DNA of 43,575 nucleotides, taken from contig JAWOIB010000114.1 in NCBI GenBank assembly GCA_046484845.1, positions 1-43,575 on the forward strand, written 5' to 3'. The stretch is from a bacterium (lineage in GTDB: Bacteria; Hydrothermota; Tepidihabitantia; Tepidihabitantales; Tepidihabitantaceae). Shown piece after piece: positions 13,756-35,538 of the stretch (position 1 is the stretch's first letter; every line of letters begins with the position of its first letter). Below the pieces are notes generated by a model that worked only from the letters and a program-made list of their open reading frames with translations, made no database searches and was not told the DNA's origin. A program made the translations under genes and the position numbers.

Positions 13756-14244
13756 GTGAGACCATCAATACTGCTCGCGACCGCGCTGCTGCTGGCGGTG
13801 GGCTGCGCCCCGCGGCTGGAGCCGGTCGGGGTTGACTTCCAGAACCTGCGGCTCGACGGCTTCGAACGCGGCGAGTTGGACCTGCTGATTACCAACCCCA
13901 ACCGGGTCGCAGTGGACATCGAGGCGATGCGCTACTCGCTGGCGCTGGGCCGGGACACGGTCGCGCTGGGCGAGCGGCAGGTGCCGCTCCGGGTGCCGGC
14001 CGGGGACACGGTGACCGCAACGTTCGGGTTCGAATTCCGATTCGAGCTCGACGGCATCTTCAACCGGCTGGGCGCGCTGCTCGACGATACGCTCCAGTTC
14101 GAGCTGGACGGTCGTTACTCGGTGCCGGGGCTGTTCGGACCCAGGCGCTGGCCGTTTCGCTACCGGCACGAGCTTCCGCTGCGGGCGGAGGTCGAGAAAC
14201 TGCTCGGGCCGCTCCGGTCGCTGTTCGGCGGAGAGGGTCGGTGA
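13756..14244 (+). CDS. LEA_2 / WHy (NDR1/HIN1-like) domain lipoprotein
   Basis: The lipoprotein signal is MRPSILLATALLLAVGC. The remainder is a beta-sandwich-like sequence (LDLLITNPNRVAVDIEAMRYSLALGRDTVA...VPAGDTVT) typical of LEA14/WHy domains. Confidence 0.65.
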   Translation: MRPSILLATALLLAVGCAPRLEPVGVDFQNLRLDGFERGELDLLITNPNRVAVDIEAMRYSLALGRDTVALGERQVPLRVPAGDTVTATFGFEFRFELDGIFNRLGALLDDTLQFELDGRYSVPGLFGPRRWPFRYRHELPLRAEVEKLLGPLRSLFGGEGR

Positions 14245-15602: not shown

Positions 15603-16775
15603 TCAGGTCTTGCAGTCGGAGGGCGGGGCGGTAAGCGCGGCCGGGTCCGCGGCCCGGGCGACGAACCGGTCCACTTCTTCCTCGGTGTTGTAGTAGTGCG
15701 GGGCAACTCGGAGCAGGTTCTCGCGCAGGGCGCAAACGAAACCGCCCGCCCGGAGCCAGGCGTGGATTGAGGCGTTGCAGGCGCCGGGTTTGCGGCAGGT
15801 GGTGAAGCAGCCGGAGCGTTCCGGCTCGGCCGGGGTGACGATTTCGAACCCGGCCGCGGCCAGCCCGGCGTGGAGCCGACGGTTGAGCGCGCGCAGGCGG
15901 GCCTCGATGGCGGCGATGCCGTCCTGTTCCCAGAGGTCGAGGCTGGCGTTGAGCCCGGCGATGCCGAGGTAGTTCTTGGTGCCGGCCTCGAACCGGGCGG
16001 CACCGGGTTTGAGGGGCTTGGCCGAGAAGATTTCGTTGAATTCGCGCCAGTCGGCCGAGAGCCAGCCGAGGTGCGCCGGGCGCAGGCCGGGCAGGGTGTC
16101 CGGCCGGACGTGGAGCATGCCCGAGCCCTGCGGGGAGAGCAGCCACTTGGCGCCGTGGCCGATGACGAAGTCGGCATCCACCGCGCGCCAGTCGCAGTCC
16201 ACCGCGCCGATGCCCTGGATGGCGTCGATGACCGAGACGACCCCGCGCTCGCGGCAGTGGCGGGCGATCGCCGTGACGTCGAACCGGCGGGCGGTGAGAA
16301 AATGGACCCAGGAGACCGCGACCAGCCGGGTGCGCTCGTCGACCAGCGAGCAGGCCGCGTCCGGGCCCTCGACCAGCGCCGCGGAGGTGACGAATCGTTG
16401 CTCTACCTGCGGCAGCAGGAACCGGAACGGGGCGGTGACGGTCGGGAAGTCGTCCGCCATCAGCACGACGTTGTCCCCGGGATGCCATTCTATCGAGCCG
16501 ATGGCGATGAGCAGGCCGGCGGTGGTGGAGCCGGTAAACGCGACCGAGTCGGGCGGAGCGTGGAGCAGGCGGGCGAGCTTCTGCCGGCAGGTCTCCGCAA
16601 CCGCCTCGGCTTCGGGGTAGGGGTACTCGCCGTCGCGGGCGGCGCGGTCCGCGAAATCCGCGACCGCCTGTACCGTGGGCGCGGGCAGCGGGCCGGTGCC
16701 GGCGTGGTTGAACCAGGTCCAGCGCTCGGTGACCGGGAACAGCCGGCGGAGGGCGGCGAGGCGATTGGAGTCCAT
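15603..16775 (-). CDS. class V aminotransferase (cysteine desulfurase / SufS-CsdA-like fold), PLP-dependent
   Basis: Class V motifs are present: FNHAGTGPLP, VSVIDAIQGIG, and the PLP-Lys context GHGAKWLLSPQGSG. I prefer the start at ATG 16775 (MDSNRL), which lies 7 nt after a GATAAT -10 box. The ORF-track start is 16793. Confidence 0.8.
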   Translation of the reverse strand: MDSNRLAALRRLFPVTERWTWFNHAGTGPLPAPTVQAVADFADRAARDGEYPYPEAEAVAETCRQKLARLLHAPPDSVAFTGSTTAGLLIAIGSIEWHPGDNVVLMADDFPTVTAPFRFLLPQVEQRFVTSAALVEGPDAACSLVDERTRLVAVSWVHFLTARRFDVTAIARHCRERGVVSVIDAIQGIGAVDCDWRAVDADFVIGHGAKWLLSPQGSGMLHVRPDTLPGLRPAHLGWLSADWREFNEIFSAKPLKPGAARFEAGTKNYLGIAGLNASLDLWEQDGIAAIEARLRALNRRLHAGLAAAGFEIVTPAEPERSGCFTTCRKPGACNASIHAWLRAGGFVCALRENLLRVAPHYYNTEEEVDRFVARAADPAALTAPPSDCKT

Positions 16776-16782
16776 CGGGCTG

Positions 16783-16810
16783 ATTATCCGCACCGGCCGG
16801 GAGGATGCAA
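16783..16810 (-). promoter_or_regulatory. promoter TTGCAT-N16-GATAAT; ATG 16775 lies 7 nt after the -10 box (leaderless geometry)
   Basis: The hexamers are the reverse complements of 16805..16810 and 16783..16788. Confidence 0.5.
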
Positions 16811-16849: not shown

Positions 16850-18325
16850 ATGCATAGGACGATAGCAGTATTCTTCTTCGCGCTGGCGGTGGCGACCGGG
16901 ACCGGGCACCGGCTCGGGCTGGTTCCCGAAGACCTGGATACGATTCCCTGGGTGCGCAGGGTGGAACAGGTGCCGGTCGCGGACGGGAAGCTCCCGGCCG
17001 GGGACCTGGTCCGGGTGGACCATTCCCCGGACATGCCGCCGATCGGCAACCAGGGCGCGCAGGGTTCCTGCGTGGCCTGGGCGCACGGGTATAATCACAT
17101 GACCCACAACGAGTTCGTGGAGCGGGGCTGGAACGTCCGGGACCCGCACCACCAGTTCAGCCCGGCGTTCCTCTACAACCAGGTGAACGGCGGCCGGGAC
17201 TGGGGCACGAGCGGCAGCGTGGTGATGCGGCTGGCGATCGAGCAGGGCTGCGCGAGCATCGTGGACCATCCCTACAACCAGTATGACTATACGACCTGGC
17301 CGAGCGAGTCGGCGTACTTCAACGCGCTCTGGTTCCGGGGGGAGGAGGCCTGCTTCATCCACGCCCGCGATACCGCGGGCATCAACCTGGTGCGCCAGCA
17401 CCTCGCCAACGGCTACACCTGCGTGATCGGCATCGCGGTCTGGTCGAACTTCGACAACATCCGCAACTTCCGCAATATCTATTCTTCGAGCGAGCGCTAC
17501 GGCACGATGCGCGGCTGGCACGCGGTGACGATCGTCGGTTACGACGATACGCTGACGACCGCGGACGGGCCGGGCGCGTTCCGGGTCGCCAATTCCTGGG
17601 GCACCGGCTGGGGCGACGCGGGCTGGTTCTGGATGACCTACGCGGCGGTGATGGACCAGGAGATGAGCGGCCGACAGGTTGAGTTCATCCGAGACTTGGT
17701 CGGTTACGAGCCGAGGATGGTGGGCCGGGTGACCATCTCCCACCCGACCCGGGACCGGGTCGGCATCGAACTGGGCGTGGCGCCGATACCGATGCCGCCC
17801 TGGTTCTTTGAGTACCGGGCCTGGCGACCGACCGGCATCGACCGCCCGTTCCCGGACCACCCGATCGTGTTCGATATGACCGGGGGCGCGGATTTCCTCA
17901 CCGGCGGGGGCGATGATTGGCTGTACCTGGGGGCGTGGGACGATATCAACGACGGCGCGACCGGGTCAATCACCGGTTTCGCAGTCGACCACCTGGAATG
18001 GGGCACGCGGGCGGTGTCCTTCGAAACCCCGGTGCCGATACCGGACGGAGCCGGGCCGGTGTTCGTGACCGCGCAGTTGCCGGCGAGCGGCGCGGCAGAG
18101 GATCCCGGGGCGGGAATTCCGGGGCGCGTCTTGCGTCTGCCGTCGGTCAGCCGCGGCACGCTGCTGCTGCCCGCCGACCAGCGTGCCGGGGCCACCCTGC
18201 GCGACGCCTCCGGCCGGAAGGTGATGGAGCTTCAGCCGGGCGAGAACGACGTCACCCGGCTCGCGCCGGGCGTGTATTTCGTGCGCACTGCGCCGGGCGT
18301 CCACCGGGTCGTGGTCCTGCGGTAG
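16850..18325 (+). CDS. secreted papain-family (C1) cysteine peptidase with a P-domain-like module and a T9SS-type C-terminal sorting domain
   Basis: A signal peptide is present. The catalytic triad contexts are Cys in NQGAQGSCVAWA, His in GWHAVTIVGYDD, and Asn in NSWGTGWGDAGW. The C-terminus (GVYFVRTAPGVHRVVVLR) is typical of T9SS/FlgD-Ig tails. Confidence 0.9.
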   Translation: MHRTIAVFFFALAVATGTGHRLGLVPEDLDTIPWVRRVEQVPVADGKLPAGDLVRVDHSPDMPPIGNQGAQGSCVAWAHGYNHMTHNEFVERGWNVRDPHHQFSPAFLYNQVNGGRDWGTSGSVVMRLAIEQGCASIVDHPYNQYDYTTWPSESAYFNALWFRGEEACFIHARDTAGINLVRQHLANGYTCVIGIAVWSNFDNIRNFRNIYSSSERYGTMRGWHAVTIVGYDDTLTTADGPGAFRVANSWGTGWGDAGWFWMTYAAVMDQEMSGRQVEFIRDLVGYEPRMVGRVTISHPTRDRVGIELGVAPIPMPPWFFEYRAWRPTGIDRPFPDHPIVFDMTGGADFLTGGGDDWLYLGAWDDINDGATGSITGFAVDHLEWGTRAVSFETPVPIPDGAGPVFVTAQLPASGAAEDPGAGIPGRVLRLPSVSRGTLLLPADQRAGATLRDASGRKVMELQPGENDVTRLAPGVYFVRTAPGVHRVVVLR

Positions 18326-18341
18326 CCGGCCGCCCGTTTGC

Positions 18342-18369
18342 TTGACCGGGACAAGCGCCGGACTATAAT
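18342..18369 (+). promoter_or_regulatory. promoter TTGACC-N16-TATAAT upstream of the lipoprotein gene (about 75-nt leader)
   Basis: Read directly from the sequence. Confidence 0.55.
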
Positions 18370-18450
18370 CCCGAAGCCTGACCAAGGCCGCCGCTGGCCG
18401 GGTCGGTCCAGCTTCAGCGGCATGGCCGGGCTGTCAGTAAAGGAGGCATA

Positions 18451-19161
18451 GTGGTGAAGAAGATGCTCGTCTCGGTGGTTCTGTCGGTGATGGTGTTCAG
18501 CCTCGTCGGCTGTGACAAGCCCACCAAACTCATCGGCACGCTGATCCTGCAGACCGGGCAGACCGGCGATGTCCAGAACGCGAAGGTCCAGCTGTTCTTG
18601 TCGTCCGACCTGACCGGCAACCCGGTGAAGGAAGTGGCCTCGATGTCCGCAGGCAACGCGTCCCGGTCCCAGTTCGAGTTCGTTGACGTGCTGCCGGGCT
18701 ACTACTACCTGTTGGCCTGGAAGGACCTTAACGGCGACGGCCAGCTGAGCGATCGTGATATCGTCGGTATTCACGGCGGCACTTATCTTCCCGGGCACGG
18801 CGGTACCCAGGTGACGGTGTCGGAGGGCAAGACCTCCGATGTCGGCGATGTCGTGATGATGATCTACAAGGAGCTGAAGACGACCGCCGGCGGCACCCGG
18901 GCGCAAGGTGGGGTTGTCACCAACTTCAGCTATTCGTTCAACTACGACCTGACCCTGAGTTCGCTGACCATCACGTTCCCGGGTTTCGACCCGATCACCG
19001 ACCCGGACGCGCCGGGCGCCAAGACCGCGGGAGTGACTTACACTTCCGAGGGCTGGAACACCGGCGGCGGGCAGATGCCGACCGGCGACCATCTCCTGCG
19101 GTTCCAGGGAACCTGGGAAGGCGCCGCTTTCGATATCACGGTTACGGTCAGCGTCAACTGA
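18451..19161 (+). CDS. hypothetical lipoprotein
   Basis: An AGGAGG Shine-Dalgarno sequence lies at 18441..18446, followed by GTG GTG. The signal and lipobox read VKKMLVSVVLSVMVFSLVGC. I recognise no protein family. Confidence 0.65.
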   Translation: MVKKMLVSVVLSVMVFSLVGCDKPTKLIGTLILQTGQTGDVQNAKVQLFLSSDLTGNPVKEVASMSAGNASRSQFEFVDVLPGYYYLLAWKDLNGDGQLSDRDIVGIHGGTYLPGHGGTQVTVSEGKTSDVGDVVMMIYKELKTTAGGTRAQGGVVTNFSYSFNYDLTLSSLTITFPGFDPITDPDAPGAKTAGVTYTSEGWNTGGGQMPTGDHLLRFQGTWEGAAFDITVTVSVN

Positions 19162-19183
19162 CAGGCCGGACGTTGGCAATGTG

Positions 19184-19213
19184 CTGCGGGAGGAGCGCAG
19201 GCTCCTCCCGCAG
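19184..19213 (+). terminator. perfect 13-bp stem / 4-nt loop hairpin after the lipoprotein gene
   Basis: The sequence is ctgcgggaggagc-gcag-gctcctcccgcag. No U-tract follows, so it may act as an attenuator or RNA-stability element rather than a full terminator. Confidence 0.4.
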
Positions 19214-19289
19214 CCGAATCCGCCCGCGGCGGATCCGGGAGGTTGCAGGCCGAGCCGGCGGGATGCCGCCGGCGGAAAGAAGAGATGAA

Positions 19290-21464
19290 ATGAATCGTAC
19301 AGTGATGACGGTTGCTTTGGTCGCGGTGCTGGCCGGGGTCGGGTTTGCCGGCGAGGGATCGGTCCGGGCTGAGGCGCAACCCGGTCGGGAACTGAAGCTC
19401 GTCCCGGAGCTCCTCGAGATACTGGCCGGGGCCGGGCCGGAGGAGGAACTCAACGTTATCGTCCGCACCCGCGTCCAGGCAGACTTGGCCGCACTGCCGC
19501 CCAGCACGGGATACGATGAGAAGATTTCTCACCTGCAGGCGACGGCCGAGGCGGCCCAGCGGGATATCTTGAGCTGGTTGGCAACGACCGGCGCACGTGA
19601 CGTCCGCAGCTTCTGGCTGGTGAGCGGGATTGCGCTCACCGCCACGCCGGAGGTTATCCGGAGCATGGCCGCCCGCGATGATGTCCAGTTCGTGACCGAC
19701 GACTTCATCATCACCGTCGGCGCGGGGCCGGTTCCGCCGCTGACCGCGGCCGCGACCGCGGGCACCGACCTGCAGGAGTGGAACATCAACAAGGTCCGCG
19801 CGCCGGAATGCTGGGCGGCCGGGTTCAATGGCGCGGGCATCGTGGTCGGCAACATCGATACCGGCGTGTACACTTCGCACCCCGCGTTCGGCGGTCGGTG
19901 GCGGTCGAGCAACGGTTGGTTCGACGGGGTCAGCGGGCAGTCCAGCCCGTACGACGACAACGGCCACGGCACCCACTGCATGGGCTCGGCGGTCGGCGGC
20001 AGCGGTATCGGGGTCGCGCCGGGCGCGACCTTCATCGCGGCCAAGGCGCTGAACGCGCAGGGCTCGGGTCAGGGTTCCTGGTTCGATGCCTGCCTGGAAT
20101 GGATGGCGGGCACCGGCCGGCCGGACGTGCTGTCCAATTCTTGGGGCACCAGCGAGCGGACCTCGACCTACTTCTTCAATCATTTCGTGAACCTGCGCAG
20201 CCTCGGCGTGGTGGTGGTCGGGGCGGTGGGCAACGAGGGTCCGGGTACCGAGACCTCGCTGCCGCCCGGCAGTTACCCGAACGTCATCGGGGTCGGCGCG
20301 ACCAACAGCGGCGACGGCATCGCCTACTTCTCATCGCGCGGGCCTGCGCCCAACCGCTACCCGTGGTGGGACAACGGGTTCTGGCCGCGGCCGGACTGGA
20401 ACCTGGTCAACCCGGGCATCTCCGCCCCGGGCGAGAACATCCGCTCGGCAATCCCGGGCGGAGGCTACTACAGCCTCGACGGCACCTCGATGGCCGCCCC
20501 CCACGTGGCCGGCGCGGCCGCGCTCCTGCTGCAGAAGAAGTCGGACCTGACCCACGACGAGATTTTCAACCTGTTCGCGAACCACGCGGTCCGGCCGTCC
20601 GGCGGCTCGCCCTACCCGAACAACAACTACGGCTGGGGCCGGCTGGACTGCAAGGCCGCGCTGGATAACGCCGGGGGCGGCGGGGGCGATGAAGAGACGC
20701 TCAAGGTCCATTACGTCTACAACGACAACGCGGTTGGGTTGACCAACGGCGGGGTCTTCTACACCGCGGCACGGCTTACCCCGACCCGCGGCAACTGCAA
20801 CGTGGTCGCCGGCATCTTCCTGCACCACGAGGCTTCGCAGAACCAGCGGTTCTTCGTCTGGCGGGGCAGCACCGCCACCAACCCGGGCGCGGTGGTCGAG
20901 TCCATCCCGTACACCGGGTCGGGCACCGGCTGGAAGCGGGTCGAGTTGACCCAGCCGTTCCGGGTCAACGCCGGCGAGGATGTCTGGCTCGGTCCCCGGT
21001 ACCAGCACGCGGCGGGCCAGTTCCCGGGCGGGGTGGACGGCGGACCGCCGGTGTCGCAGCGCGGCGGCTGGCTGAACTACGACGGGAGCTGGATCGAGCT
21101 GAGCTCCGCCGGGCTGGACTTCAACTGGATGGTTGCCGCGATCGTGCGCTACGACGGGGCGGTCGAGGAGGACCTGCTCGAACCGCTGCCGGCCGGGCCG
21201 GCGGTCAGCGCGCCGAGTTTCCTTGTCAATCCCGGCCGGGTGGAGTACTCCCTGCCCGGGGCGGGCCGGGCGGAGCTGGTGGTGTGCGATGTCAGCGGCA
21301 AGCTGGTGCGGATGCTGGCCAGCGGGGTCTTCCCGGCGGGTCGGCACAGCGCGGGCTGGGACCTGACCGACAGCCGCGGCCGCCGCGTGGCGAGCGGTAC
21401 ATACCTGTTCCGGCTGACGGTCGGCGGCCGGACGCAGACTTCCCGGTCGGTGGTGCTGGACTAG
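19290..21464 (+). CDS. secreted subtilisin-family (S8) serine peptidase with an I9-like propeptide, a beta-sandwich module and a T9SS-type C-terminal domain
   Basis: The catalytic triad contexts are Asp in VGNIDTGV, His in DDNGHGTHC, and Ser in GTSMAAPHVAGAAALL. A signal peptide follows ATG 19290 (MNRTVMTVALVAVLAGVGFA). The C-terminus reads GTYLFRLTVGGRTQTSRSVVLD. Confidence 0.9.
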   Translation: MNRTVMTVALVAVLAGVGFAGEGSVRAEAQPGRELKLVPELLEILAGAGPEEELNVIVRTRVQADLAALPPSTGYDEKISHLQATAEAAQRDILSWLATTGARDVRSFWLVSGIALTATPEVIRSMAARDDVQFVTDDFIITVGAGPVPPLTAAATAGTDLQEWNINKVRAPECWAAGFNGAGIVVGNIDTGVYTSHPAFGGRWRSSNGWFDGVSGQSSPYDDNGHGTHCMGSAVGGSGIGVAPGATFIAAKALNAQGSGQGSWFDACLEWMAGTGRPDVLSNSWGTSERTSTYFFNHFVNLRSLGVVVVGAVGNEGPGTETSLPPGSYPNVIGVGATNSGDGIAYFSSRGPAPNRYPWWDNGFWPRPDWNLVNPGISAPGENIRSAIPGGGYYSLDGTSMAAPHVAGAAALLLQKKSDLTHDEIFNLFANHAVRPSGGSPYPNNNYGWGRLDCKAALDNAGGGGGDEETLKVHYVYNDNAVGLTNGGVFYTAARLTPTRGNCNVVAGIFLHHEASQNQRFFVWRGSTATNPGAVVESIPYTGSGTGWKRVELTQPFRVNAGEDVWLGPRYQHAAGQFPGGVDGGPPVSQRGGWLNYDGSWIELSSAGLDFNWMVAAIVRYDGAVEEDLLEPLPAGPAVSAPSFLVNPGRVEYSLPGAGRAELVVCDVSGKLVRMLASGVFPAGRHSAGWDLTDSRGRRVASGTYLFRLTVGGRTQTSRSVVLD

Positions 21465-21480
21465 CGGCACCGGTAATCGT

Positions 21481-21509
21481 TGCGGCCCCGCACCGGGTGC
21501 GGGGCCGCA
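21481..21509. terminator. 13-bp stem / 3-nt loop hairpin between convergent S8 and M1 peptidase genes (bidirectional terminator candidate)
   Basis: The sequence is tgcggccccgcac-cgg-gtgcggggccgca, followed by GTTCTTCC on the plus strand. Confidence 0.55.
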
Positions 21510-21527
21510 GTTCTTCCAGGCCGGCGG

Positions 21528-23525
21528 CTACTCGAAGATGAGCTTACGGGTCTCGGTTACGCCGCCGGCGGTGAGCCGGACCAGGTAGGCTCCGGCGGCC
21601 AGCCCGCGGACCTCGGCCGAGTAATGACCGGCCGTCCGTCGGCCGGAGGCGAGGGTGCGGACGAGCCGGCCGGTGACGTCGTGGACCGCGAGCGTGACGT
21701 CCCGGGCTTGGGGCAGGCTGTAGCGCACCACGGACCGGCCCCGGGCCGGGTTGGGCGCGGGCGCGTGCAGGACCGGCCGCGTCACGCCGACCTCGGGCGA
21801 GAGCTGCTGTTCGATGCCGCTGGTGATGCTGACCTTGTGGAGGAGCCACTTGCCCGGGTCGAAGACGATGCCGACCGGCCGGGCCCGGAGCGGGAAGGCG
21901 TCGCGCTGGGGATTGGCCTCGATGCCCCAGTGCAGGAGCGTATCGCCGCCGCCTTCGAGGTTGACCAGCACCTCGACCGGGGTGCGGAAGAAGTCCGGGG
22001 CCTGCGGGCCGTTGTCCTGGCCGACGTCTATGACCACCTCCCAGCCGTCCGCGGTTTCGCGCGGAAACCAGTTGACGGTGTAGTTGGGGAAGCCGGCCTG
22101 GAACACCCACTCGTCGTAGAACCAGCCGATGTCCCCGAGCCAGCGTTCCTGGATGGCCTGGCGCTCATAGGTAGTGCCGGTGCCGTAGGCGAAGCTGTCG
22201 GCCCAGGCGCGCTCGGATTCAAACCAGGTGCCCGGGCTGTCGAAGATGGTGTCGCCGTGCAGGTACCGGGTCATGTGGTTGACCCAGGCCGCCTTGCAGT
22301 AGGTATGCCCCCAGTCGAACATCCGGGACAGGCCCGGGTCGTAGAGCGGACGGCGGAAGCTGGCGTCGGACTGGAAGTAGGCGGTGGCGTAGTCCGCCAT
22401 CCGGGTCTCGAAGGCCGCAGCGCCGTAGTAGTGGTGGAACCAGAGCGGGTCGAGGTAGGTGGCCGAGCCTTCGTTGAGCCAGATTTCCCGCCAGTCCTGG
22501 CAGGTGATGTAGTCGCCGAACCACATATGGGCGAGCTCGTGAGCGATGCCCCATTCCGATGCGTTGAGCACCCACGCGCGGTGCACCGTCGTCATAGTCT
22601 GGTGCTCCATCCCGCCGAAGCTGAACGGGAAGACCGCGACGTGGCCGTATTTCTCTTCCGGGAACGGGTAGGGACCGAACCGGTCCGGCCGCGAAAAGAA
22701 CTCAATCATGTCCGGCACATTCCGGTAGGCCTGGTTTCGGGCGGCCGTGTCCTCAGGCCAGACGTAATTGTAAACCGGTATCGAGTCACCGCCGCCGATA
22801 TGCGCATGCTGAACTTGGGCGACATAGCTGCTCGCCGCGAAGTTGATGAGGTAGGTCGAGACCGGGTAACGGTGGGTCCACCAGAAGGTCCTCTTTCCGC
22901 CCCGGGTCGTGACGCTGTCGAGCAGGCCGGGCGCGCAGGCGACGAAGCTGTCGGGTACGGTGACGCTGACCATGCAGCCGGCCTCGGCCTTGTCCCAGGG
23001 ATGGTCCCAGCCGGGGAACCAGTAGCGCGAGTCGTTGGGCTGGGTAATCGAGTAGGCCACGGAATGGAGCCGCTGCTGGCCCGGGTCCTTTGCGTACCAG
23101 TAGAAGCCGCGGTTGCTCGTGCCCGCGTTGCGGCGGTAGAAGACGTCGATTGTGACCGAGTCGCCTTCGGGCACCGGCGGGTCGGGGAAGACATTGAGGA
23201 ACTGGTAGGACTCGACGAAACGCAGGTGGTCGTTGCCGAGCTTGACCGAGTCGCAGGTCAGGTTGGCGAAATCCAGGAAAATGCTGTCGAGCGCGGGCCG
23301 GTTGCTCCGGAGCCGGATTGCGCAGCGGGCGGTCATCGAGCCATCGGTCATCGGCAGGTCCATGTCTATCCGGTAGTGGCGGACATCGTAACTGTGGGAG
23401 GATTCCGCCGCGATGGCGGGAGGGGTGAGGCCGGGCAGGTGCCACTTGGCCTCGTAGGTCTCCGGCCCGGGTATGTGGCCCGGGGCCGCGGCCGCGAGCA
23501 GGGCCAGGATGACGAGCGTTTTCAT
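21528..23525 (-). CDS. secreted M1-family zinc metallopeptidase (aminopeptidase N-like) with a T9SS-type C-terminal domain
   Basis: The motifs are GGMEHQ (a GxMEN variant), HELAHMWFG, and WLNEG for the zinc site. The start is ATG 23525 (MKTLVILALLAAAAPG), preceded by a GGAGG Shine-Dalgarno sequence. The C-terminus reads GAYLVRLTAGGVTETRKLIFE. Confidence 0.9.
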   Translation of the reverse strand: MKTLVILALLAAAAPGHIPGPETYEAKWHLPGLTPPAIAAESSHSYDVRHYRIDMDLPMTDGSMTARCAIRLRSNRPALDSIFLDFANLTCDSVKLGNDHLRFVESYQFLNVFPDPPVPEGDSVTIDVFYRRNAGTSNRGFYWYAKDPGQQRLHSVAYSITQPNDSRYWFPGWDHPWDKAEAGCMVSVTVPDSFVACAPGLLDSVTTRGGKRTFWWTHRYPVSTYLINFAASSYVAQVQHAHIGGGDSIPVYNYVWPEDTAARNQAYRNVPDMIEFFSRPDRFGPYPFPEEKYGHVAVFPFSFGGMEHQTMTTVHRAWVLNASEWGIAHELAHMWFGDYITCQDWREIWLNEGSATYLDPLWFHHYYGAAAFETRMADYATAYFQSDASFRRPLYDPGLSRMFDWGHTYCKAAWVNHMTRYLHGDTIFDSPGTWFESERAWADSFAYGTGTTYERQAIQERWLGDIGWFYDEWVFQAGFPNYTVNWFPRETADGWEVVIDVGQDNGPQAPDFFRTPVEVLVNLEGGGDTLLHWGIEANPQRDAFPLRARPVGIVFDPGKWLLHKVSITSGIEQQLSPEVGVTRPVLHAPAPNPARGRSVVRYSLPQARDVTLAVHDVTGRLVRTLASGRRTAGHYSAEVRGLAAGAYLVRLTAGGVTETRKLIFE

Positions 23526-23584
23526 CAGGTAACCTCCGTGGTGTTCGTCCGGACAGCGGGCGCGAGACATGAGACATTATAGCC

Positions 23585-23632: not shown

Positions 23633-25582
23633 TCAGCGCAGGATGGTGACCGGTACCGCGCCGGGCGCGCCGGCGAGGCGCAGGAAGTAACCGCCCGCGG
23701 GCAGGTCCGGCCGCCATTCCCGGGTGCCTTCGAACTCGAGCCGCTCGACGACCCGGCCGAGCGCGTCCGCAACCTCGACCTCGGCAACGCCCTCCTGCCC
23801 GGGCGCGGTCAGCACGAACCGCCGGCCGGCCGGGTGCGGGCGGACGATGAGCGCGGGCCTGTTCGACCCGGACGGGCAAGGTTCCTCGACCCCGGTGGCG
23901 AGCAGGCGGTCCATCGTCGCCATCACCGCCTGCGGGTCGAACTGGTCCGACCAGTAGCGGACGATGCCGTCCCGGTCAATGATGTGGTCCTGCGGGTAGG
24001 GCGCCTCGGGCTGGGGCACGCGCCAGGACTGGTAGACCGCGCTCGTCGGGTCAACCAGCCCGACGTAGCGCATCCCGAAGACATCGCGGAATTCGCTGAG
24101 CTGGTTGATGTTGGCCCCGATGGCGAAGATGGCGACCTCGGCGGTGTCGTAGCGAGGATAGACGGTTCCGTCAATTGCCGCAGACTGCGGCCCGCAGAGC
24201 GGTCACCACGAGGCGCCGAACTGGAGGTAGACGACCTTACCCCGGTAGTCCGAGAGCCGGTGCCAGCGGCTGTCCGTGCCCTGGAGGTTGAAGTCCGGCG
24301 CGGCCGAGCCCGCCTGCGGGAAGCCGGGGTTGTTCTTGTAGACCTCGACGCGGTAGGCCGGGAAGTGCGGGTCGTTCGAGTTGAAGACGATGCCGGCGTT
24401 GACGCGGTCGCTGCCGGCCGCGCCGACGGTGACGAACAGCGAGTCGCCGGCCGACACCGAGAACGACGGCGGCGCAACGGTGATGCCGCCCGGCGCATCC
24501 ACCGAGGTGACCGTCAGCGTCCCGGCCCCGGTGTTGCGCACGACGATGGTGGTCTCGACCGGGCTGGACACCGCGCCGAAATCGAGCGCCTCCGGCTCCA
24601 CGTCAATGTCCGCGCCCGGGTCCGGCCCGACCCGGAAAGTGGACATTCCGCGCCAGTCGCCGATGACGATGAGGTCGCCGCTGATGTCGGCACCGAGCGC
24701 CCAGGTCTTGGTGTTGTCCCAGCCCGCGCGCCTGACCGCAGCCGGGTTCGTGATGTCGAAGAGTTCCAGGTAGCGCCACGAACCGCACACAACCAGGTTG
24801 CCGCTCACGCCGATGCCCCAGGCACAGCCTTCGGTCGCCGCGATGTCGAGCAGGGCCGGCTGGTAGGGGTCGGTAAGGTCCACCGTCGCGAGGCCGCTCG
24901 CACCGAGCGAAAGGACCGCGACGTCGCCCGCCATTATGATGTCGTTGGCAAGGCCGGGCAGGGCAAGGTCCGCGATGCGGCGGGGCGTGCCCGCCAGCGC
25001 GATGACCGCCAGCCCGTGCCGGCCGTTGGCCACGAACAGGAAGGAGTCCCGGGCCTCGACGTTCCAGGCCGCGGCGGTCGGCGCGAGCGAGATGCCGCCA
25101 ACCCGGGTTATCGTCGCCGGGTCGGAGCAGTCTATGAGGTAGATGCCGTTCTGGTGCGCCGCGGCGTAGAGCGTGTCGCCGACCAGCGCGCCGCCTTCGA
25201 GCGCCTCGCGATTGCCGGGCGGGTTATACTGGCCCCGGCCCACGGGCGCACCGACGATACCGTAGCGGACGACGCCGTCCTGCCGGCAGAACGCGAAGAG
25301 GAGGGTATCGCCGTAGACGCGGGTGCGCCAGGCATCCGGGCCTCCGGTCCAGGTCCGAACCGGGACGGCCGGGTCGCTGATATCGTAGACCTCGAGGCCC
25401 TGGCCGAGCCCGTTGGCGATGAAGGCCCGCTCGCCAACCACCTCCGCATCCATCAGGTGGGCGCGGTTGACCTCGTTGTGGCCGACCAGGCGGATGTTGT
25501 CAATCCCGGCCCGCGCCGGGACCGCGGTGAGCATGAGCATGACCGCGGCAAGCGGGAGCGACTGACCGGTGAGTCTTACCAT
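23633..25582 (-). CDS. secreted LVIVD-repeat beta-propeller / Ig-like / thioredoxin-fold (TlpA-ResA/AhpC-TSA-like) protein with a T9SS-type tail; one in-frame TGA (24203..24205) is read as a candidate selenocysteine
   Basis: ORF-track entries 24203..25627 and 23633..24073 share a frame and are separated only by this TGA. Read-through gives ...VVYLQFGASW-U-PLCGPQSAAIDG..., so the TGA occupies the first Cys of the WCxxC motif. The signal peptide is MVRLTGQSLPLAAVMLMLTAVPARAG. The C-terminus reads GGYFLRLAGAPGAVPVTILR. If there is no recoding, this is a split or pseudogenised gene. Confidence 0.6.
24177..24191 (-). other. candidate bacterial SECIS apical hairpin (GCCGC-AGUCU-GCGGC)
   Basis: On the mRNA the sequence reads UGA CCGCUCUGCGG GCCGC AGUCU GCGGC. 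The stem starts 12 nt after the UGA and the loop starts 17 nt after it, with G-U in the loop. From memory, this resembles the E. coli fdhF SECIS apex GCAGGUCUGC. An alternative pairing, CUGCG-GGC-CGCAG, competes with it. Confidence 0.4.
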
Positions 25583-25588
25583 CAGGAG

Positions 25589-25616
25589 ATTGTACCCGAC
25601 CCGGGGAGCCGCACAA
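25589..25616 (-). promoter_or_regulatory. promoter TTGTGC-N16-TACAAT; ATG 25582 lies 6 nt after the -10 box (leaderless geometry)
   Basis: The hexamers are the reverse complements of 25611..25616 and 25589..25594. The -35 hexamer is weak. Confidence 0.45.
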
Positions 25617-25640
25617 ACCCGGGGCAAGCCGGTTTTCTCT

Positions 25641-25668
25641 TGGACAGCCCCGGGCTGGGCGCTATAAT
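25641..25668 (+). promoter_or_regulatory. promoter TGGACA-N16-TATAAT for the mvhD/flx-like operon (23-nt leader)
   Basis: Read directly from the sequence. It is divergent from the promoter at 25589..25616. Confidence 0.55.
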
Positions 25669-25691: not shown

Positions 25692-26153
25692 ATGAGTGAT
25701 ACTCAACCGGTAACGCCCGACTGGCAGCCGCGCATCGTCGCGTTCCTGTGCAACTGGTGTTCCTACGCGGGGGCCGACCTCGCGGGCATCTCGCGCATCC
25801 AGTACCCGCCGAGCATCCGGGTCATCCGGGTGCCCTGCTCGGGGCGGGTTGACCCGTTCTACATCCTGAAGTCGCTGCAACTGGGCGCAGACGGCGTGCT
25901 CGTCTCCGGCTGTCACCCGGGCGACTGCCATTACCTCACCGGCAACTACGTCGCCCGCCGCCGGTTCGCGGTGCTCAACGACCTGCTCGAGTTCTTCGGC
26001 ATCGAGCCGGGCCGGGTGATGTTCTCGTGGGTTTCCGCGGCCGAGGGCGAGCGGTTCGCCGAAGTCGTCCGCGAGGTGACCGAAGCCGTGCGCCGGCTCG
26101 GCCCTTCCAACCGGCTGGCCGCCGGCCGGAGCCCGCTCGAGGCGACCACTTGA
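25692..26153 (+). CDS. MvhD/FlxD-like protein (methyl-viologen-reducing hydrogenase delta-subunit family, [2Fe-2S])
   Basis: The sequence PRIVAFLCNWCSYAGADLAG...IRVIRVPCSGRVDPFYILKSL..GADGVLVSGCHPGDCHY is the MvhD/FlpD signature. Confidence 0.85.
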   Translation: MSDTQPVTPDWQPRIVAFLCNWCSYAGADLAGISRIQYPPSIRVIRVPCSGRVDPFYILKSLQLGADGVLVSGCHPGDCHYLTGNYVARRRFAVLNDLLEFFGIEPGRVMFSWVSAAEGERFAEVVREVTEAVRRLGPSNRLAAGRSPLEATT

Positions 26154-26965
26154 GCGCGATCGAGCAGGTCCGGGCCCGGTGCCGCGAGCGGCTGAAGCGA
26201 GGTGAGACCGATATCGTGCTTGGATACCGCGCCGGCCGTCGGACCGGGACCGCGGTACCCGCGTTTGTCACCACGGCGGGGGATTGCGAGAAGTTGGTGC
26301 TCGACGAGAGCTGTCATCACAACCTTGCCGCCTACCTGCCCGGCCTGCGCCACAAGGGCCGGGTGACGGTCATCGCCACCGGCCCGACTTCGCGTTCGGT
26401 CGTCAACCTGCTGAAGGAAAGCCAGTTCGACCGCGAGAAGCTCTACATCATCGGGGTCAGCGACCCGTTCCCGGAGCCGGCATCGGGGGTCCGGGACGCG
26501 GTACTCTGCGACGAGTTCCCAGGTGAACGGTCCGGTGAGGTCGAGCCTGCCCCGGACCCGGCGCTGCAGGCCTTCGAGGCAAAGAGTTCGGACGAACGCT
26601 GGGAACTGCTGACCGCAGAGTTCGGGCGCTGTATCCGGTGCTACGCCTGCCGGCAGGTCTGCCCGAACTGCTACTGCCCGACCTGTTTCGTGGATGCGAA
26701 CCGTCCCCAGTGGGTCGGCCGGACGCCCGACCTGTCCGACAACCTCCTGTTTCACCTGGTGCGGGCCATGCACATGGTCGGCCGGTGCGTTGAGTGCGGA
26801 GCCTGCGCCCGGGCCTGCCCGAGGGGAATAGACCTGATGCTCGTCAACCGGAAGGTGAGCGCAATCGTGCGCGACCGGTTCGGACATGCCTCCGGGATGA
26901 GCCTGGACGACCAACTGCCGCTGACCGGTTTCAGTCCCGACGACCGCCAGGATTTCATCAGGTGA
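26150..26965 (+). CDS. 4Fe-4S cluster protein, FlxC-like (HydB/AsrA-related Fe-S subunit)
   Basis: Two Cys clusters are present: CIRCYACRQVCPNCYCPTC and CVECGACARACPRGID. The proposed TTG start at 26150 overlaps the mvhD-like stop (TTGA) and is therefore tentative. Confidence 0.65.
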   Translation: MSAIEQVRARCRERLKRGETDIVLGYRAGRRTGTAVPAFVTTAGDCEKLVLDESCHHNLAAYLPGLRHKGRVTVIATGPTSRSVVNLLKESQFDREKLYIIGVSDPFPEPASGVRDAVLCDEFPGERSGEVEPAPDPALQAFEAKSSDERWELLTAEFGRCIRCYACRQVCPNCYCPTCFVDANRPQWVGRTPDLSDNLLFHLVRAMHMVGRCVECGACARACPRGIDLMLVNRKVSAIVRDRFGHASGMSLDDQLPLTGFSPDDRQDFIR

Positions 26966-27972
26966 CCCCCCGGTTGCTGCGGAAGGATGGGCTGGCCGGG
27001 TTCCTGGCCGGGAAGGTCGAAGTCCTGGCGCCGGTGCGGGTCCCGGGAGAGGAGGCGAGCAGGTACGGCCCGGTGAAGAGCGCGCAGGACGTCTGCCTTG
27101 ACTACCTGAATACCAGGTTGCCGGTGAAGGAACTATTCTTCCCCCAGCGCGAGGTGCTGTTCCGGTTCCGGCCCGGCCGGCTGGCCGAGGCGGAGCCGGT
27201 GCCCGAACCGCCGGAGCGGGTGGTGTTCGGTGTCCGGCCCTGCGATGCGGCCGCGCTGGAGTTGTTCGACCGGGTGTTCCTGGACCCGAAGTACGACGAC
27301 CCGGGCTATCGCCGCCGGCGCGAGCAGACCACGCTTGTGGGGCTCGCCTGCGACAAGCCCGGCGAAGCCTGTTTCTGCACCGCGGTGGGAGGGGACCCGC
27401 ACGGTACCGCCGCGCTCGACCTCCTGCTCGAGGATATCGGCGATAGCTGGCTCTGCCGGCCGCTGACCGAGAAGGGCGAGAAACTTGTCGAGGGTCTGAA
27501 AGAGGCGGCGGCGGGCGACGTCGCGGACGCCGACAAGCACGCCGAGGCGGCCCGGGCCGCGCTCCAGTTCGCCCTCGACCGGGCCGGGCTGGAGAACAAG
27601 CTGGCCGGGGCGTTCGAGCATGACGTCTGGGAAGAGCTGGCCCGGCCCTGCGTCAACTGCGGGGTCTGCACCTTTGTCTGCCCGACCTGTCACTGCTTCG
27701 ACGTGACCGACGAGGAGCGTGCCGACCGGGGTGCGCGCATCCGGACCTGGGACTCGTGCCAGTTCGCGCTGTTCACCCGGCACGCGTCCGGACACAACCC
27801 CCGGCCGACCGGCCGCGACCGCCTGCGCAACCGCACCCTGCACAAGTTCCGATTCTTCCCGACCACCCACGGTTCGGTGCTCTGCGTCGGCTGCGGCCGC
27901 TGCATTACCGACTGCCCGGCCGGCATCGATTTGCGCGAAACCCTGGAGACGCTCGACGAGGCGCTGGAATGA
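26962..27972 (+). CDS. 4Fe-4S dicluster protein, FlxB-like (sulfhydrogenase beta HydB / anaerobic sulfite reductase AsrA family)
   Basis: The motifs are CVNCGVCTFVCPTCHCFD...WDSCQF...HKF...CVGCGRCITDCPAGID. The GTG start at 26962 overlaps the previous stop (GTGA). Confidence 0.8.
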   Translation: MTPRLLRKDGLAGFLAGKVEVLAPVRVPGEEASRYGPVKSAQDVCLDYLNTRLPVKELFFPQREVLFRFRPGRLAEAEPVPEPPERVVFGVRPCDAAALELFDRVFLDPKYDDPGYRRRREQTTLVGLACDKPGEACFCTAVGGDPHGTAALDLLLEDIGDSWLCRPLTEKGEKLVEGLKEAAAGDVADADKHAEAARAALQFALDRAGLENKLAGAFEHDVWEELARPCVNCGVCTFVCPTCHCFDVTDEERADRGARIRTWDSCQFALFTRHASGHNPRPTGRDRLRNRTLHKFRFFPTTHGSVLCVGCGRCITDCPAGIDLRETLETLDEALE

Positions 27973-28808
27973 CAGGAAACCCCTACCTGCCCTGGCCGGT
28001 GCGGTTGGAGAAGGTTACCACCGAGAACGACGCGAGGGACCTCAAGACTTTCGAACTGTCGTTTGCGGATCCGTCCGCCCGGGAGCGGTTTCGCTTCGAG
28101 CCCGGCCAGTTCGGGTTCATAAGCCTGTCCGGTGTGGGCGAGGCGCCTTTCGGCATCGCTTCGGCCCCGCACGAGGAGCGGGTCTGGTTCACGGTCAAGA
28201 AAGCCGGGGTATTCACCACCGCGCTCCACGAGCTGTCGGTCGGTGTGGAAATCGGGATGCGCGGGCCCTACGGCAATAACTACCCGCTCGCGGCGTCAAA
28301 GGGCCGAGATATCGTCATCGTGTCCGGCGGGTTCAGTTTTACCACCCTGCGGTCGACAATAGTCCACCTGCTGCGGCCCGAACGTCGCGGCGATTACGGC
28401 CGGATCACGGTGGTCTATGGTGCCCGTAGCCCGGGCGAACTCCTCTACAAGGACGAGCTCCGGGCCTGGGAGGCATCGCCTGACCTGGACCTGACGCTCT
28501 GCGTCGACCGCCGGGCGGGCGAATGGCCCGCGACCGAGGGCCTGGTCCCGAACGTGCTGAAGCAGGTTTCGCCGTCGGCGAAGAACGCGGTCGCGCTCGT
28601 CTGCGGCCCGCCGGTGATGCTTCGGTTCACCCACCCGGTGCTGGAAGCGCTCGGGTTCGGCCCCGACGACATCTACCTGTCACTCGAGAACCGGATGAAA
28701 TGCGGTATCGGCAAGTGCGGGCGGTGCAACATCGGCGAGAAGTACGTCTGCAAGGACGGCCCGGTGTTCAGTCACCGGCAGCTGCTCTCACTGCCGGCCG
28801 ATTTCTGA
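27969..28808 (+). CDS. FAD/NAD(P)H-binding oxidoreductase with a C-terminal [2Fe-2S] site, FlxA-like (HydG / AsrB / PyrK family)
   Basis: The ferredoxin-reductase-type blocks are FEPGQFGFISL, PFGIAS, IVIVSGGFSFTTL and LVCGPPVM. The C-terminal cluster motif is CGIGKCGRCNIGEKYVCKDG. The ATG start overlaps the previous stop (ATGA). Confidence 0.85.
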   Translation: MTGNPYLPWPVRLEKVTTENDARDLKTFELSFADPSARERFRFEPGQFGFISLSGVGEAPFGIASAPHEERVWFTVKKAGVFTTALHELSVGVEIGMRGPYGNNYPLAASKGRDIVIVSGGFSFTTLRSTIVHLLRPERRGDYGRITVVYGARSPGELLYKDELRAWEASPDLDLTLCVDRRAGEWPATEGLVPNVLKQVSPSAKNAVALVCGPPVMLRFTHPVLEALGFGPDDIYLSLENRMKCGIGKCGRCNIGEKYVCKDGPVFSHRQLLSLPADF

Positions 28809-34680: not shown

Positions 34681-35435
34681 TGCGGCTCCCGGCCGACGCC
34701 GCTCCAGCGCTCGAGCAGTTGCGTTACCCGGCGCCGGAAGCGGAGGTAGAGCAGGACCGCGACCAGCGCCGCCGCGCCCAGCAGCAGCCATTCCAACCAT
34801 CCGAACCGGGTCGCACCACTACCCAGCCCGCATTCGAGCAGGCTGGTCGGCAGCCGGGCGAGGAACACAACCGTAAGGAACAGCGGCAGGGGCAGGGCGG
34901 TCAGCCCGGCGATGTAATAAGCAAGGTCTCCGACCGGGTTGGGAATAAGTATCAGCAGGAACACGTAGAATGCCCCGCGCCGGATGACCATGCGGTCGAG
35001 CTGCGCGAGCCGGTCGGCCGATACGAAGAAGCGCAGCAGCCGCCGGCCCAGGATTCGCGCCAGCAGGAAATTGATGGTGGCGCCGAGCATGATGCCGACC
35101 ATCAGCCAGGCGATGCCGGGCCAGAAGCCGTAGGCGTACCCGACCGCGAACGACAGCGGGTGCCCGGGCAGGGGCGCGAGCAATATCTGGAGGACCTGGA
35201 AGCCGATGATGCCGAGCGGGGCCCAGGCGCCCCAGCCGGCCACGAGCGCGCGCAGTTCCGCCGGGCGGCGGAACAGGTGCCAGAGTTGCCGGCCGTAGAG
35301 CAGGAGCAGGGTGATGGCCGCGGCGACGAGCAACCCGGTCAGCACGGCGGATACAACCGCGCCTTTGGGCCTGTCGCCCGGTCCGCCCCCGGCGGCGGGG
35401 GCGTCGGGGTGGTCGGCGCTGTCGGGACCAGCCAT
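34677..35435 (-). CDS. TVP38/TMEM64 (DedA/SNARE-associated) family membrane protein
   Basis: Multiple TM segments are present. Family-like blocks include LLAPLPGHPLSFAVGYAYGFWPG and IPNPVGDLAYYIAGLT. I prefer the start at ATG 35435; the ORF-track start is 35483. Confidence 0.75.
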   Translation of the reverse strand: MAGPDSADHPDAPAAGGGPGDRPKGAVVSAVLTGLLVAAAITLLLLYGRQLWHLFRRPAELRALVAGWGAWAPLGIIGFQVLQILLAPLPGHPLSFAVGYAYGFWPGIAWLMVGIMLGATINFLLARILGRRLLRFFVSADRLAQLDRMVIRRGAFYVFLLILIPNPVGDLAYYIAGLTALPLPLFLTVVFLARLPTSLLECGLGSGATRFGWLEWLLLGAAALVAVLLYLRFRRRVTQLLERWSGVGREPH

Positions 35436-35443
35436 CAGGCTCA

Positions 35444-35471
35444 AGGATATTGAGCCGGCCCGGGAAGTAAA
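35444..35471 (-). promoter_or_regulatory. promoter TTTACT-N16-TATCCT; ATG 35435 lies 8 nt after the -10 box
   Basis: The hexamers are the reverse complements of 35466..35471 and 35444..35449. Both are weaker matches to consensus. Confidence 0.35.
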
Positions 35472-35476
35472 GCCGG

Positions 35477-35504
35477 TTGACACGAGAGACAGCGTGCCGA
35501 TAAT
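35477..35504 (+). promoter_or_regulatory. promoter TTGACA-N16-GATAAT for the FG-GAP protein gene (34-nt leader with AAGGAGG SD)
   Basis: Read directly from the sequence. Confidence 0.55.
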
Positions 35505-35538
35505 CGGTCAGCGGCGTCCGCACAAAAAGGAGGCGTTC

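Follow-up and report, generated by a model that had tools for sequence, protein, structure and literature searches.

A probable selenoprotein combining an LVIVD-repeat propeller, a thioredoxin fold and a predicted secretion tail in a Hydrothermota genome

Established selenoprotein families include the peroxiredoxin (Prx)-like thiol:disulfide oxidoreductases (PF00578, UxxC) and the thiol-disulfide isomerase-like or TlpA-family proteins (cd02966, UxxC), and outer-membrane selenoproteins of the TonB-dependent receptor type and of the MtrB/PioB-type barrel have already been listed (PMC13188914). Here we describe a gene whose product resembles the first two of these families in its redox domain and departs from them in its architecture. 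The gene lies on the minus strand at 23633..25582 of contig JAWOIB010000114.1, from a bacterium of the Hydrothermota; the whole stretch of DNA that was analyzed, 43,575 nucleotides long, is called the window throughout. With a probability that we put at about 0.9, this is a selenoprotein gene, an assessment based on a conserved in-frame TGA, a conserved frame downstream of it, a covarying hairpin, the pairing of selenocysteine (Sec) with cysteine in related proteins, and the identities of the encoded domains.

Like the Prx-like and TlpA-family selenoproteins, the predicted product has a PF00578/PF08534 fold, Sec in place of the first Cys of CxxC, and a Sec insertion sequence (SECIS) just downstream within the coding region; unlike them, it carries its Sec module in fourth place within a predicted secreted protein of ~650 residues. 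The descriptions of the families listed in PMC13188914 set the window protein apart from them, although its thioredoxin (Trx) domain may already be counted under one of these families. None of the NCBIfam selenoprotein models matches the window protein.

By sequence, the best PDB matches are ResA, TlpA, CcmG, Etrx1 and relatives (PDB 1su9, 3c71, 4hqs, 2ls5, 1jfu), whose ASWCxxC stands residue for residue opposite ASW-U-PLC, so that WCxxC faces W-U-x-x-C. In structure, too, the domain is matched best by ResA (chains 1su9, 3c71 and 2h1g), and both proteins are extracytoplasmic, the window protein by prediction. ResA, TlpA, CcmG and Etrx are Cys proteins, membrane-anchored or periplasmic lipoproteins, which are reduced by CcdA/DsbD. 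The window protein differs from them in its predicted Sec, its N-terminal part made of a propeller and an immunoglobulin (Ig)-like domain, its secretion tail, and the lack of an evident electron donor.

At the RNA level, the gene resembles E. coli fdhF and fdnG, in which the SECIS hairpin likewise adjoins the UGA and carries a GCAG-GU-CUGC-like sequence at its apex; in fdhF numbering, the G/U of the loop is ~21-24 nt away from the U of UGA. In contrast to these elements, the loop of the window family is shorter, with 3 nt (GGC, GUC or AGG), and an equivalent of the bulged U is not established. In the library that was searched, no paper brings LVIVD together with selenocysteine or WOR-3 together with selenoprotein, and none ties selenocysteine to type IX secretion, the single paper that contains both of these terms mentioning selenocysteine once in passing; a paper on metagenome-assembled genomes (MAGs) of WOR-3 names selA/selB for other MAGs only. 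Three features of the family appear to be undescribed: the joining of a Sec-containing Trx domain with a propeller of LVIVD repeats, with an Ig domain and with a tail of type IX secretion system (T9SS) type; the near-exclusive use of Sec in the orthologous clade; and the spread over several candidate and FCB-group phyla.

The initial annotation had drawn attention to two minus-strand open reading frames (ORFs), 24203..25627 and 23633..24073, that share one frame and are split by a TGA only, and re-reading the sequence confirmed both this arrangement and the reported sequence around the TGA. From the ATG at 25582, the frame comprises 459 sense codons, the TGA at 24205..24203, another 189 sense codons and the stop at 23635..23633. 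The features that carry the argument are the following, where the genome set is a collection of 32 copies of the gene from genomes:

23633..25582, minus strand: complete candidate gene for a selenoprotein, with 649 codons and, at 23635..23633, the terminal TGA.
24203..24205, minus strand: UGA codon 460, read here as Sec, opposite the first Cys of WCxxC according to the sequence and the alignments.
24194..24196, minus strand: TGC codon 463, the putative resolving Cys of UxxC, kept in 30 of the 32 genome-set copies.
24177..24191, minus strand: candidate SECIS apical hairpin GCCGCA-GUC-UGCGGC, with 6 bp in the window copy.

The residues that flank the UGA read ...VVYLQFGASW-[TGA]-PLCGPQSAAIDGTVYPRY..., or, in a longer form, VVYLQFGASW-[TGA]-PLCGPQSAAIDG, and if Sec is inserted the predicted tryptic peptide across the UGA is VVYLQFGASW-U-PLCGPQSAAIDGTVYPR. 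Both halves of the gene look coding, because the GC content at third codon positions is 0.89-0.90 both before and after the TGA. The NCBI annotation (R6X14_06235, hypothetical protein) takes in only the first 459 codons. In the window, an ATG first occurs 44 codons past the TGA, within the thioredoxin fold, and a separate product begun there would be missing both helix alpha1 and the active site.

In a protein search for which the read-through sequence served as query, ~115 homologues came up, which share 45-74% identity and originate from MAGs of WOR-3, Stahlbacteria and unclassified lineages, nearly all of them 441-485 residues long and nearly all stopping at the same point, ...FG(A/G)xW. 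The initial annotation had held that homologues consistently terminating here would speak against a selenoprotein. The homologues do end at this point, but such an end is just what annotation makes of a Sec family, and no refutation follows; what counts is that the stop is TGA throughout, with an open frame beyond it. At the DNA level, the site is TGA in 31/31 readable genome loci, among them two complete WOR-3 chromosomes and MAGs of Eisenbacteria, Gemmatimonadota and Phycisphaerales, and in 44/44 orthologous metagenome loci; neither TAA, TAG nor a Cys codon was found at the site in any of these genome and metagenome loci. The true terminal stops of the 32 genome-set genes are distributed over all three codons (15 TAG, 13 TGA and 4 TAA), and four-fold sites nearby are close to saturation; therefore, an unconstrained stop would not have remained TGA.

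The recurrence of the codon also bears on the explanation that the TGA arose through faulty sequencing or assembly, or that UGA is a sense codon in this organism (code 4 or 25); nothing speaks for this explanation except that a MAG shows an in-frame TGA at all. We give this explanation next to no chance of being right, as the same TGA is found in 75 independent assemblies from many projects. Codes 4 and 25 were rejected since TGA ends most ordinary window genes at normal lengths; it is in fact their commonest stop (that of IleRS, for example), which identifies the genetic code as standard. Moreover, when the fetched loci above 55% GC were scanned, in-frame TGAs with a coding signal on both sides occurred almost only in the LVIVD-Trx family and one other.

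Downstream of the TGA, the frame is open for 188-232 codons in 32/32 genome-set copies, and the protein it encodes is strongly conserved (Q, A, D, PYPQD and ID..G.VRYW, the last two within the pattern PYPQDxxID..G.VRYW). A filter-free search of the post-TGA fragment against 1.84 billion representative proteins yielded 134 matches, nearly all of them "orphan" ORFs of 70-230 residues that start a few to ~45 residues after the TGA position. Such orphan ORFs are the mark that a split selenoprotein gene leaves in annotation. The opposite interpretation is that the TGA is a genuine stop, with a 459-residue propeller-Ig protein and a separate or decaying ORF behind it (two genes, or a pseudogene). 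Every public annotation does treat the TGA as a stop, and the Sec machinery was not found in the window or the fetched flanks. Nevertheless, we regard a genuine stop as highly improbable, given that TGA occupies 75/75 of the sites read whereas real terminal stops are mixed, that the 188-232 downstream codons are under strong protein-level constraint, that no start codon is conserved after the TGA, and that the break would split the thioredoxin fold between beta1 and alpha1, at the catalytic residue itself.

Several variants of the family were seen alongside the orthologues that follow the general pattern. L020:7339 (labelled Eisenbacteria) and L021:7396 have U-P-V-V rather than U-P-x-C and keep both the TGA and the hairpin. 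Two paralogues of the gene occur in several genomes, namely L002 and L010 (both on CP070680.1), L019 and L023 (CAZUHB01), and L018 and L027 (JALGZR01), each paralogue with its own TGA and hairpin; CP070802.1 is, like CP070680.1, a complete chromosome that bears the gene. L089:418-490 contains a frameshift just past the SECIS hairpin (PLCGPQAARPRMALY...*), which is either an assembly error or the mark of a pseudogene. The sole read-through orthologue in the first protein search, P0074 (630 aa, from a Logan contig), has the motif FGSSA-S-PI-S, Ser-x-x-Ser for U-x-x-C, in which Trp, Sec and Cys are all replaced; to judge by this motif, P0074 is probably redox-dead.

The SECIS-like hairpin, whose loop the initial annotation had placed ~17 nt past the UGA, proved to be present in all copies and to covary among them, and it lies within the published limits for bacterial SECIS (bSECIS) elements detailed below. 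In the window, the loop occupies 24183..24185 and begins 17 nt after the UGA, and the bases of the hairpin also encode G464-P-Q-S-A-A469. Most orthologues have a 7-bp stem (24176..24192 in window coordinates), and in many of them a lower stem extends the hairpin. The significance of this structure derives from the comparison with other loci and not from the window sequence alone. For this comparison, covariation was assessed in an ungapped alignment of 72 distinct sequences and 72 nt, 4 of the sequences coming from a distant Sec subfamily, and the 32-sequence genome set was treated separately. Conservation of the hairpin in TGA-bearing orthologues had been set beforehand as a test, and the 7-bp stem with a 3-nt loop was found in 72/72 sequences. 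For columns 20-26 against columns 30-36, the share of paired cells is 97.6%, as compared with 23-56% when the partner is slid; changes on both sides occur in 5/7 pairs (53 cells), and the observed pairing or covariation was reached by 0/500 shuffles.

The same signal can be followed codon by codon in the genome set, where the loops are GGC (25), GUC (4) and AGG (3). The middle position of codon +5, which is either CCG (Pro) or CTG (Leu), covaries in 32/32 sequences with the wobble position of the Ala codon +8 (GCG or GCA), the pair being CG in 19 and UA in 13, and a like covariation links the middle position of codon +4 (Gly, or Pro/Ala/Ser) to the wobble position of codon +9. Thus, amino-acid changes in the 5' arm (Pro<->Leu, Gly<->Pro/Ala/Ser) are compensated by synonymous changes in the 3' arm (GCG<->GCA, GCC<->GCG). 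At the wobble positions of codons +4, +5 and +7, the entropy is 0.34, 0 and 0 bits, respectively, compared with ~1.5-1.9 bits at other four-fold sites, and the wobble base of codon +7 is an invariant T (GCT in 25/32) although the loci are mostly GC-rich. On the strength of these alignments, we consider that protein coding cannot explain the covariation. The frozen wobble sites and the covariation reveal an RNA element right after the TGA, which is a further point against a genuine stop at this codon.

The bSECIS criteria are a loop of 3-9 nt, a G in the first two loop positions, an upper stem of 4-16 bp, a distance of 16-37 nt from the UGA, and a minimum free energy (MFE) that is at or below -7.5 kcal/mol (PMC13188914, Fig. 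2 legend). The family falls inside all four limits, with a 3-nt loop having G at position 1 or 2, a stem of 6-7 bp, a spacing of 17 nt, and an MFE, calculated over 40 nt, of -11.8 to -26.5 kcal/mol across all 32 sequences. The hairpin is kept also in genomes at 41-49% GC.

The position of the TGA at the first Cys of WCxxC, the classic site of Sec/Cys exchange as the initial annotation had noted, is agreed upon by the PDB alignments and by the alignment with P0175. The Cys-containing homologues that it had suggested looking for opposite the TGA do exist (P0175, L091 and the ResA/Etrx chains of the PDB), and Cys can be said to stand at the UGA position in homologues because P0175 and other Cys-form relatives align there. 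P0175 is collinear with residues 135-562 of the window protein (28% identity over 448 columns, E 1e-41), in an alignment that also takes in the Ig-like region and that puts WCPIC opposite W[U]PLC. Together with P0231, P0245 and P0253, it is a full-length protein that matches LVIVD and AhpC-TSA/Redoxin and carries WCPxC or ICPxC; (W/I)CPxC is also found at the matching position in P0202. These four Cys-form proteins have the same LVIVD and AhpC-TSA/Redoxin Pfam domains as the window protein, but they share only 26-36% identity with it in the domain, use Cys instead of Sec, end just after the Trx domain and, unlike the window protein, are without a C-terminal sorting domain.

A distant LVIVD-redoxin subfamily of 26-28% identity (L090:3957, L092:2373, L093:1784 and L095:1182) contains F-TGA-P-x-C. 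Its hairpin, GUCUGGA-GUU-xCCAGAC, is very different in sequence and occurs in exactly the same register, and in the Cys-form relative L091:1660 (W-TGC-P-V-C) there is no hairpin at that place.

These comparisons also bear on the idea that the UGA is read through by a near-cognate tRNA that inserts Trp, Cys or Arg under stimulation by the hairpin. By themselves, the hairpin and the conserved TGA do not tell which residue is inserted, and we give the idea a small chance, of about one in twenty. To our knowledge, stop read-through of such a kind, kept from phylum to phylum, is not among the established mechanisms of bacteria. Furthermore, the position is that of the catalytic Cys of WCxxC, at which Sec and Cys classically replace each other, the Cys-form relative has TGC and no hairpin, and the spacing, loop size and loop G fit the SelB-type bSECIS consensus (PMC13188914). 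Insertion of Sec therefore remains our preferred reading.

The domain order proposed in the initial annotation turned out to be right. Domain searches, made with Cys substituted at the TGA, and inspection of the N-terminus delimit the following elements in the window protein:

25508..25582, minus strand: predicted Sec-type signal peptide MVRLTGQSLPLAAVMLMLTAVPARA, judged by eye, with cleavage after A-R-A, then G.
24623..25507, minus strand: LVIVD-repeat beta-propeller, ~residues 26-320 (PF08309, 37.6 bits, and the proxy model).
24365..24610, minus strand: Ig-like domain (HYDIN/VesB or choice-of-anchor D type) that spans residues 325-406 and whose scores in the window copy fall short of the curated cutoffs.
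23945..24316, minus strand: ResA/TlpA-like thioredoxin fold (AhpC-TSA/Redoxin), residues 423-546, with predicted U460-P-L-C463 (Pfam, PDB and the proxy model).
23636..23839, minus strand: putative C-terminal beta-sandwich sorting domain, T9SS type A, residues 582-649 (TIGR04183 below threshold; orthologues).

Orthologues have equivalent N-termini, and the Ig-like scores, which for HYDIN/VesB amount to 22 bits against a cutoff of 25.5 in the window copy, exceed the cutoffs in many homologues. AhpC-TSA (PF00578) matches residues 425-543 with 57.1 bits (cutoff 26) and Redoxin (PF08534) with 45.8 bits; the NCBIfam ResA model gives 47.7 bits against a cutoff of 170, so the window protein is not a ResA equivalog. 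The structure was approached through P0074, a read-through variant of 47% identity, whose AlphaFold model (mean predicted local distance difference test score, pLDDT, 84.9; predicted template modeling score, pTM, 0.77) comprises a beta-propeller, an Ig-like sandwich, a thioredoxin fold and a C-terminal beta-sandwich of lower confidence. In this model, the active-site motif lies between strand 412-417 and helix 423-440, that is, at the beta1/alpha1 junction. According to Foldseek, the propeller of P0074 is all-beta and matches WD40, BamB and sialidase propellers, and its redox domain superposes on ResA with a template modeling (TM) score of 0.83-0.85 and a root-mean-square deviation of 1.9-2.2 A. 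A typical peroxiredoxin was considered and rejected: the PxxxTxxC motif is absent, the upstream L-Q-F-G-A-S-W having neither Pro at -7 nor Thr/Ser at -3, and the best PDB and structural matches are ResA/TlpA and not Prx.

The T9SS-type tail claimed in the initial annotation has support from the orthologues, 23/32 of whose C-termini match TIGR04183 at E <= 0.01 (best E 1.8e-10), while the window copy itself falls below the cutoff. By tblastn, the C-terminal tail of the window protein is tied to that of the adjoining M1 peptidase, and we infer from these sequences a T9SS route for this particular copy. Other window genes for cargo proteins bearing a C-terminal domain imply T9SS machinery (PorU, PorV, SprA and others), and T9SS-like ends, ...VVLR or ...VLVD, are found on other window ORFs, such as 35311-37425. 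An exported selenoprotein had been expected to be unusual; export is indeed predicted, but exported and outer-membrane selenoproteins are already known, which makes it less so (PMC13188914).

A number of observations weigh against the selenoprotein reading. First, tblastn with E. coli SelA, SelB and SelD found none of these proteins encoded in the window or in the fetched flanks of the family-bearing contigs (115 loci), and ARAGORN found no tRNA-Sec in the window or in 73 scanned loci. The absence of selA, selB, selD and tRNA-Sec near the gene is uninformative, because such genes are normally unlinked. Second, the single-sequence fold of the hairpin in the window reaches only z = -2.05, with 7/200 shuffles folding as well, the window copy has a weak lower stem, and Rfam, at gathering as well as permissive thresholds, gave chance matches only and no match to a SECIS family. 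Third, L020 and L021 are without the resolving Cys, so classical dithiol exchange may not apply, and the T9SS tail of the window copy (the C-terminal 68 residues) scores 17.1-18.6 bits with TIGR04183, for which the cutoff is 23. Finally, we know of no reductant for a thioredoxin-fold protein beyond the outer membrane.

We infer that the Sec machinery is present in the host. A 91-nt "tRNA-Gly(GCC)" that ARAGORN called at 13959..14049 (+) lies inside a high-GC coding region and is very likely a false positive; it is not a tRNA-Sec. Outside the window, the fetched loci, from related genomes, contain a second candidate selenoprotein family, unrelated to the first and designated "G-C-U", a secreted repeat protein of ~470 residues with a T9SS/FlgD_ig-type tail, for which no Pfam match was found. 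Its loci are:

L003:6794-8260, with the TGA at 7142-7144.
L038:3056-4510, with the TGA at 3407-3409.
L116:9626-11113.
L117:882-2369.
L118:802-2373.
L119:1642-3045.

The in-frame TGA of this family, in the motif W(Q/H)(E/R)G-C-U-F(T/Q)RDV.G.RV, is conserved in 6/6 loci and is followed 24 nt past the UGA by a hairpin, GGxGxC-CGGGU-GxCxCC, with compensatory changes; every one of the nearest entries in the databases (P0255-P0260, P0262) is a post-TGA fragment. In L003 and L038, the "G-C-U" gene is directly downstream of the LVIVD-Trx selenoprotein gene, and L119 belongs to the same MAG as L005. As far as can be judged from these sequences, the family offers independent, indirect support for the decoding of Sec in this lineage. 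One more in-frame TGA was seen at L114:11894, in the motif ...AWNAG-C-U-RPHTP, between stretches of 685 and 280 codons that both carry a coding signal.

Putting these elements together, we propose that UGA460 would be decoded as Sec within one gene for a secreted selenoprotein of ~650 residues. By the well-established mechanism, the hairpin 17 nt downstream would act as a bacterial SECIS, binding SelB-GTP-Sec-tRNA(Sec) at the ribosome, and would then be unwound and translated to give G-P-Q-S-A-A. The protein would be exported through the Sec translocon and then by type IX secretion, to end on or outside the cell surface. There, Sec460 may be the attacking nucleophile on a disulfide, sulfenate or peroxide, and the selenenylsulfide so formed may be resolved by Cys463; binding of the substrate probably falls to the propeller and Ig domains. 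One-selenol chemistry is possible too, given the U-P-V-V of L020 and L021. As to function, the gene context leads us to guess at a role in loosening disulfide-bonded proteins for the neighboring secreted peptidases.

The gene is situated at the end of a run of secreted-peptidase genes (window 16850-23570), and is divergent from an operon of four genes. The features of this neighborhood are:

16850..18325, plus strand: C1 papain-like peptidase.
19173..21464, plus strand: S8 subtilase with FlgD_ig tail.
21528..23570, minus strand: M1 aminopeptidase with Por_Secre_tail.
25692..28808, plus strand: divergent "flx-like" operon (mvhD/Fe-S/FAD), four genes, as listed in the next four lines.
25692-26153, plus strand: MvhD/FlpD-like protein.
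~26150-26965, plus strand: 4Fe-4S protein.
~26962-27972, plus strand: HydB/AsrA-like beta subunit.
27975-28808, plus strand: FAD/NAD and 2Fe-2S gamma-like subunit.

The M1 gene also follows the selenoprotein gene in L002 and L003. A functional link to the flx-like operon, whose divergent transcription the initial annotation had pointed out, is unsupported and was rejected, since the operon is next to the selenoprotein gene in none of the first 33 related loci; it contains no in-frame TGAs. A class-V aminotransferase of the cysteine desulfurase/selenocysteine lyase superfamily is encoded a few genes away, at 15603-16793 (-), and a similar gene, at L118:5006-6181, occurs near the M1 peptidase of that locus. 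Two strong sigma-70-like promoter matches were noted, where 0.1 would be expected by chance, one upstream of the mvhD-like operon at 25641-25668 (+) and the other between the selenoprotein and M1 peptidase genes at 23604-23576 (-). No intrinsic terminator-like site was found after the selenoprotein gene.

If the TGA is read as Sec, then more than 100 entries from MAGs of WOR-3, Stahlbacteria, Eisenbacteria, Gemmatimonadota and Planctomycetota, each now split into a truncated "hypothetical protein" and an orphan fragment, would each represent one selenoprotein, and a corrected annotation would give back to every one of them its redox domain and its secretion signal. The finding indicates the use of selenocysteine in poorly known candidate phyla and would add a large multidomain, secretion-tailed architecture to a selenoproteome that is dominated by small cytoplasmic redox proteins. 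In addition, a clean hairpin whose amino-acid changes are offset by synonymous ones makes a good training case for bacterial SECIS models. A Sec thioredoxin fold beyond the outer membrane also raises the question of what reduces it and what its target is. A broader proposal, which we put forward as speculative and consider rather unlikely as a whole, is that WOR-3 and neighboring FCB-group lineages deploy an extracellular selenium-based redox toolkit via T9SS, in which an obligate-Sec propeller-Ig-Trx oxidoreductase, often beside a "G-C-U" selenoprotein and secreted peptidases, possibly reduces or reshuffles external disulfides before proteolysis. If this were true, Sec would be a catalytic residue of the cell surface in connection with a secretion system for which it is as yet undescribed.

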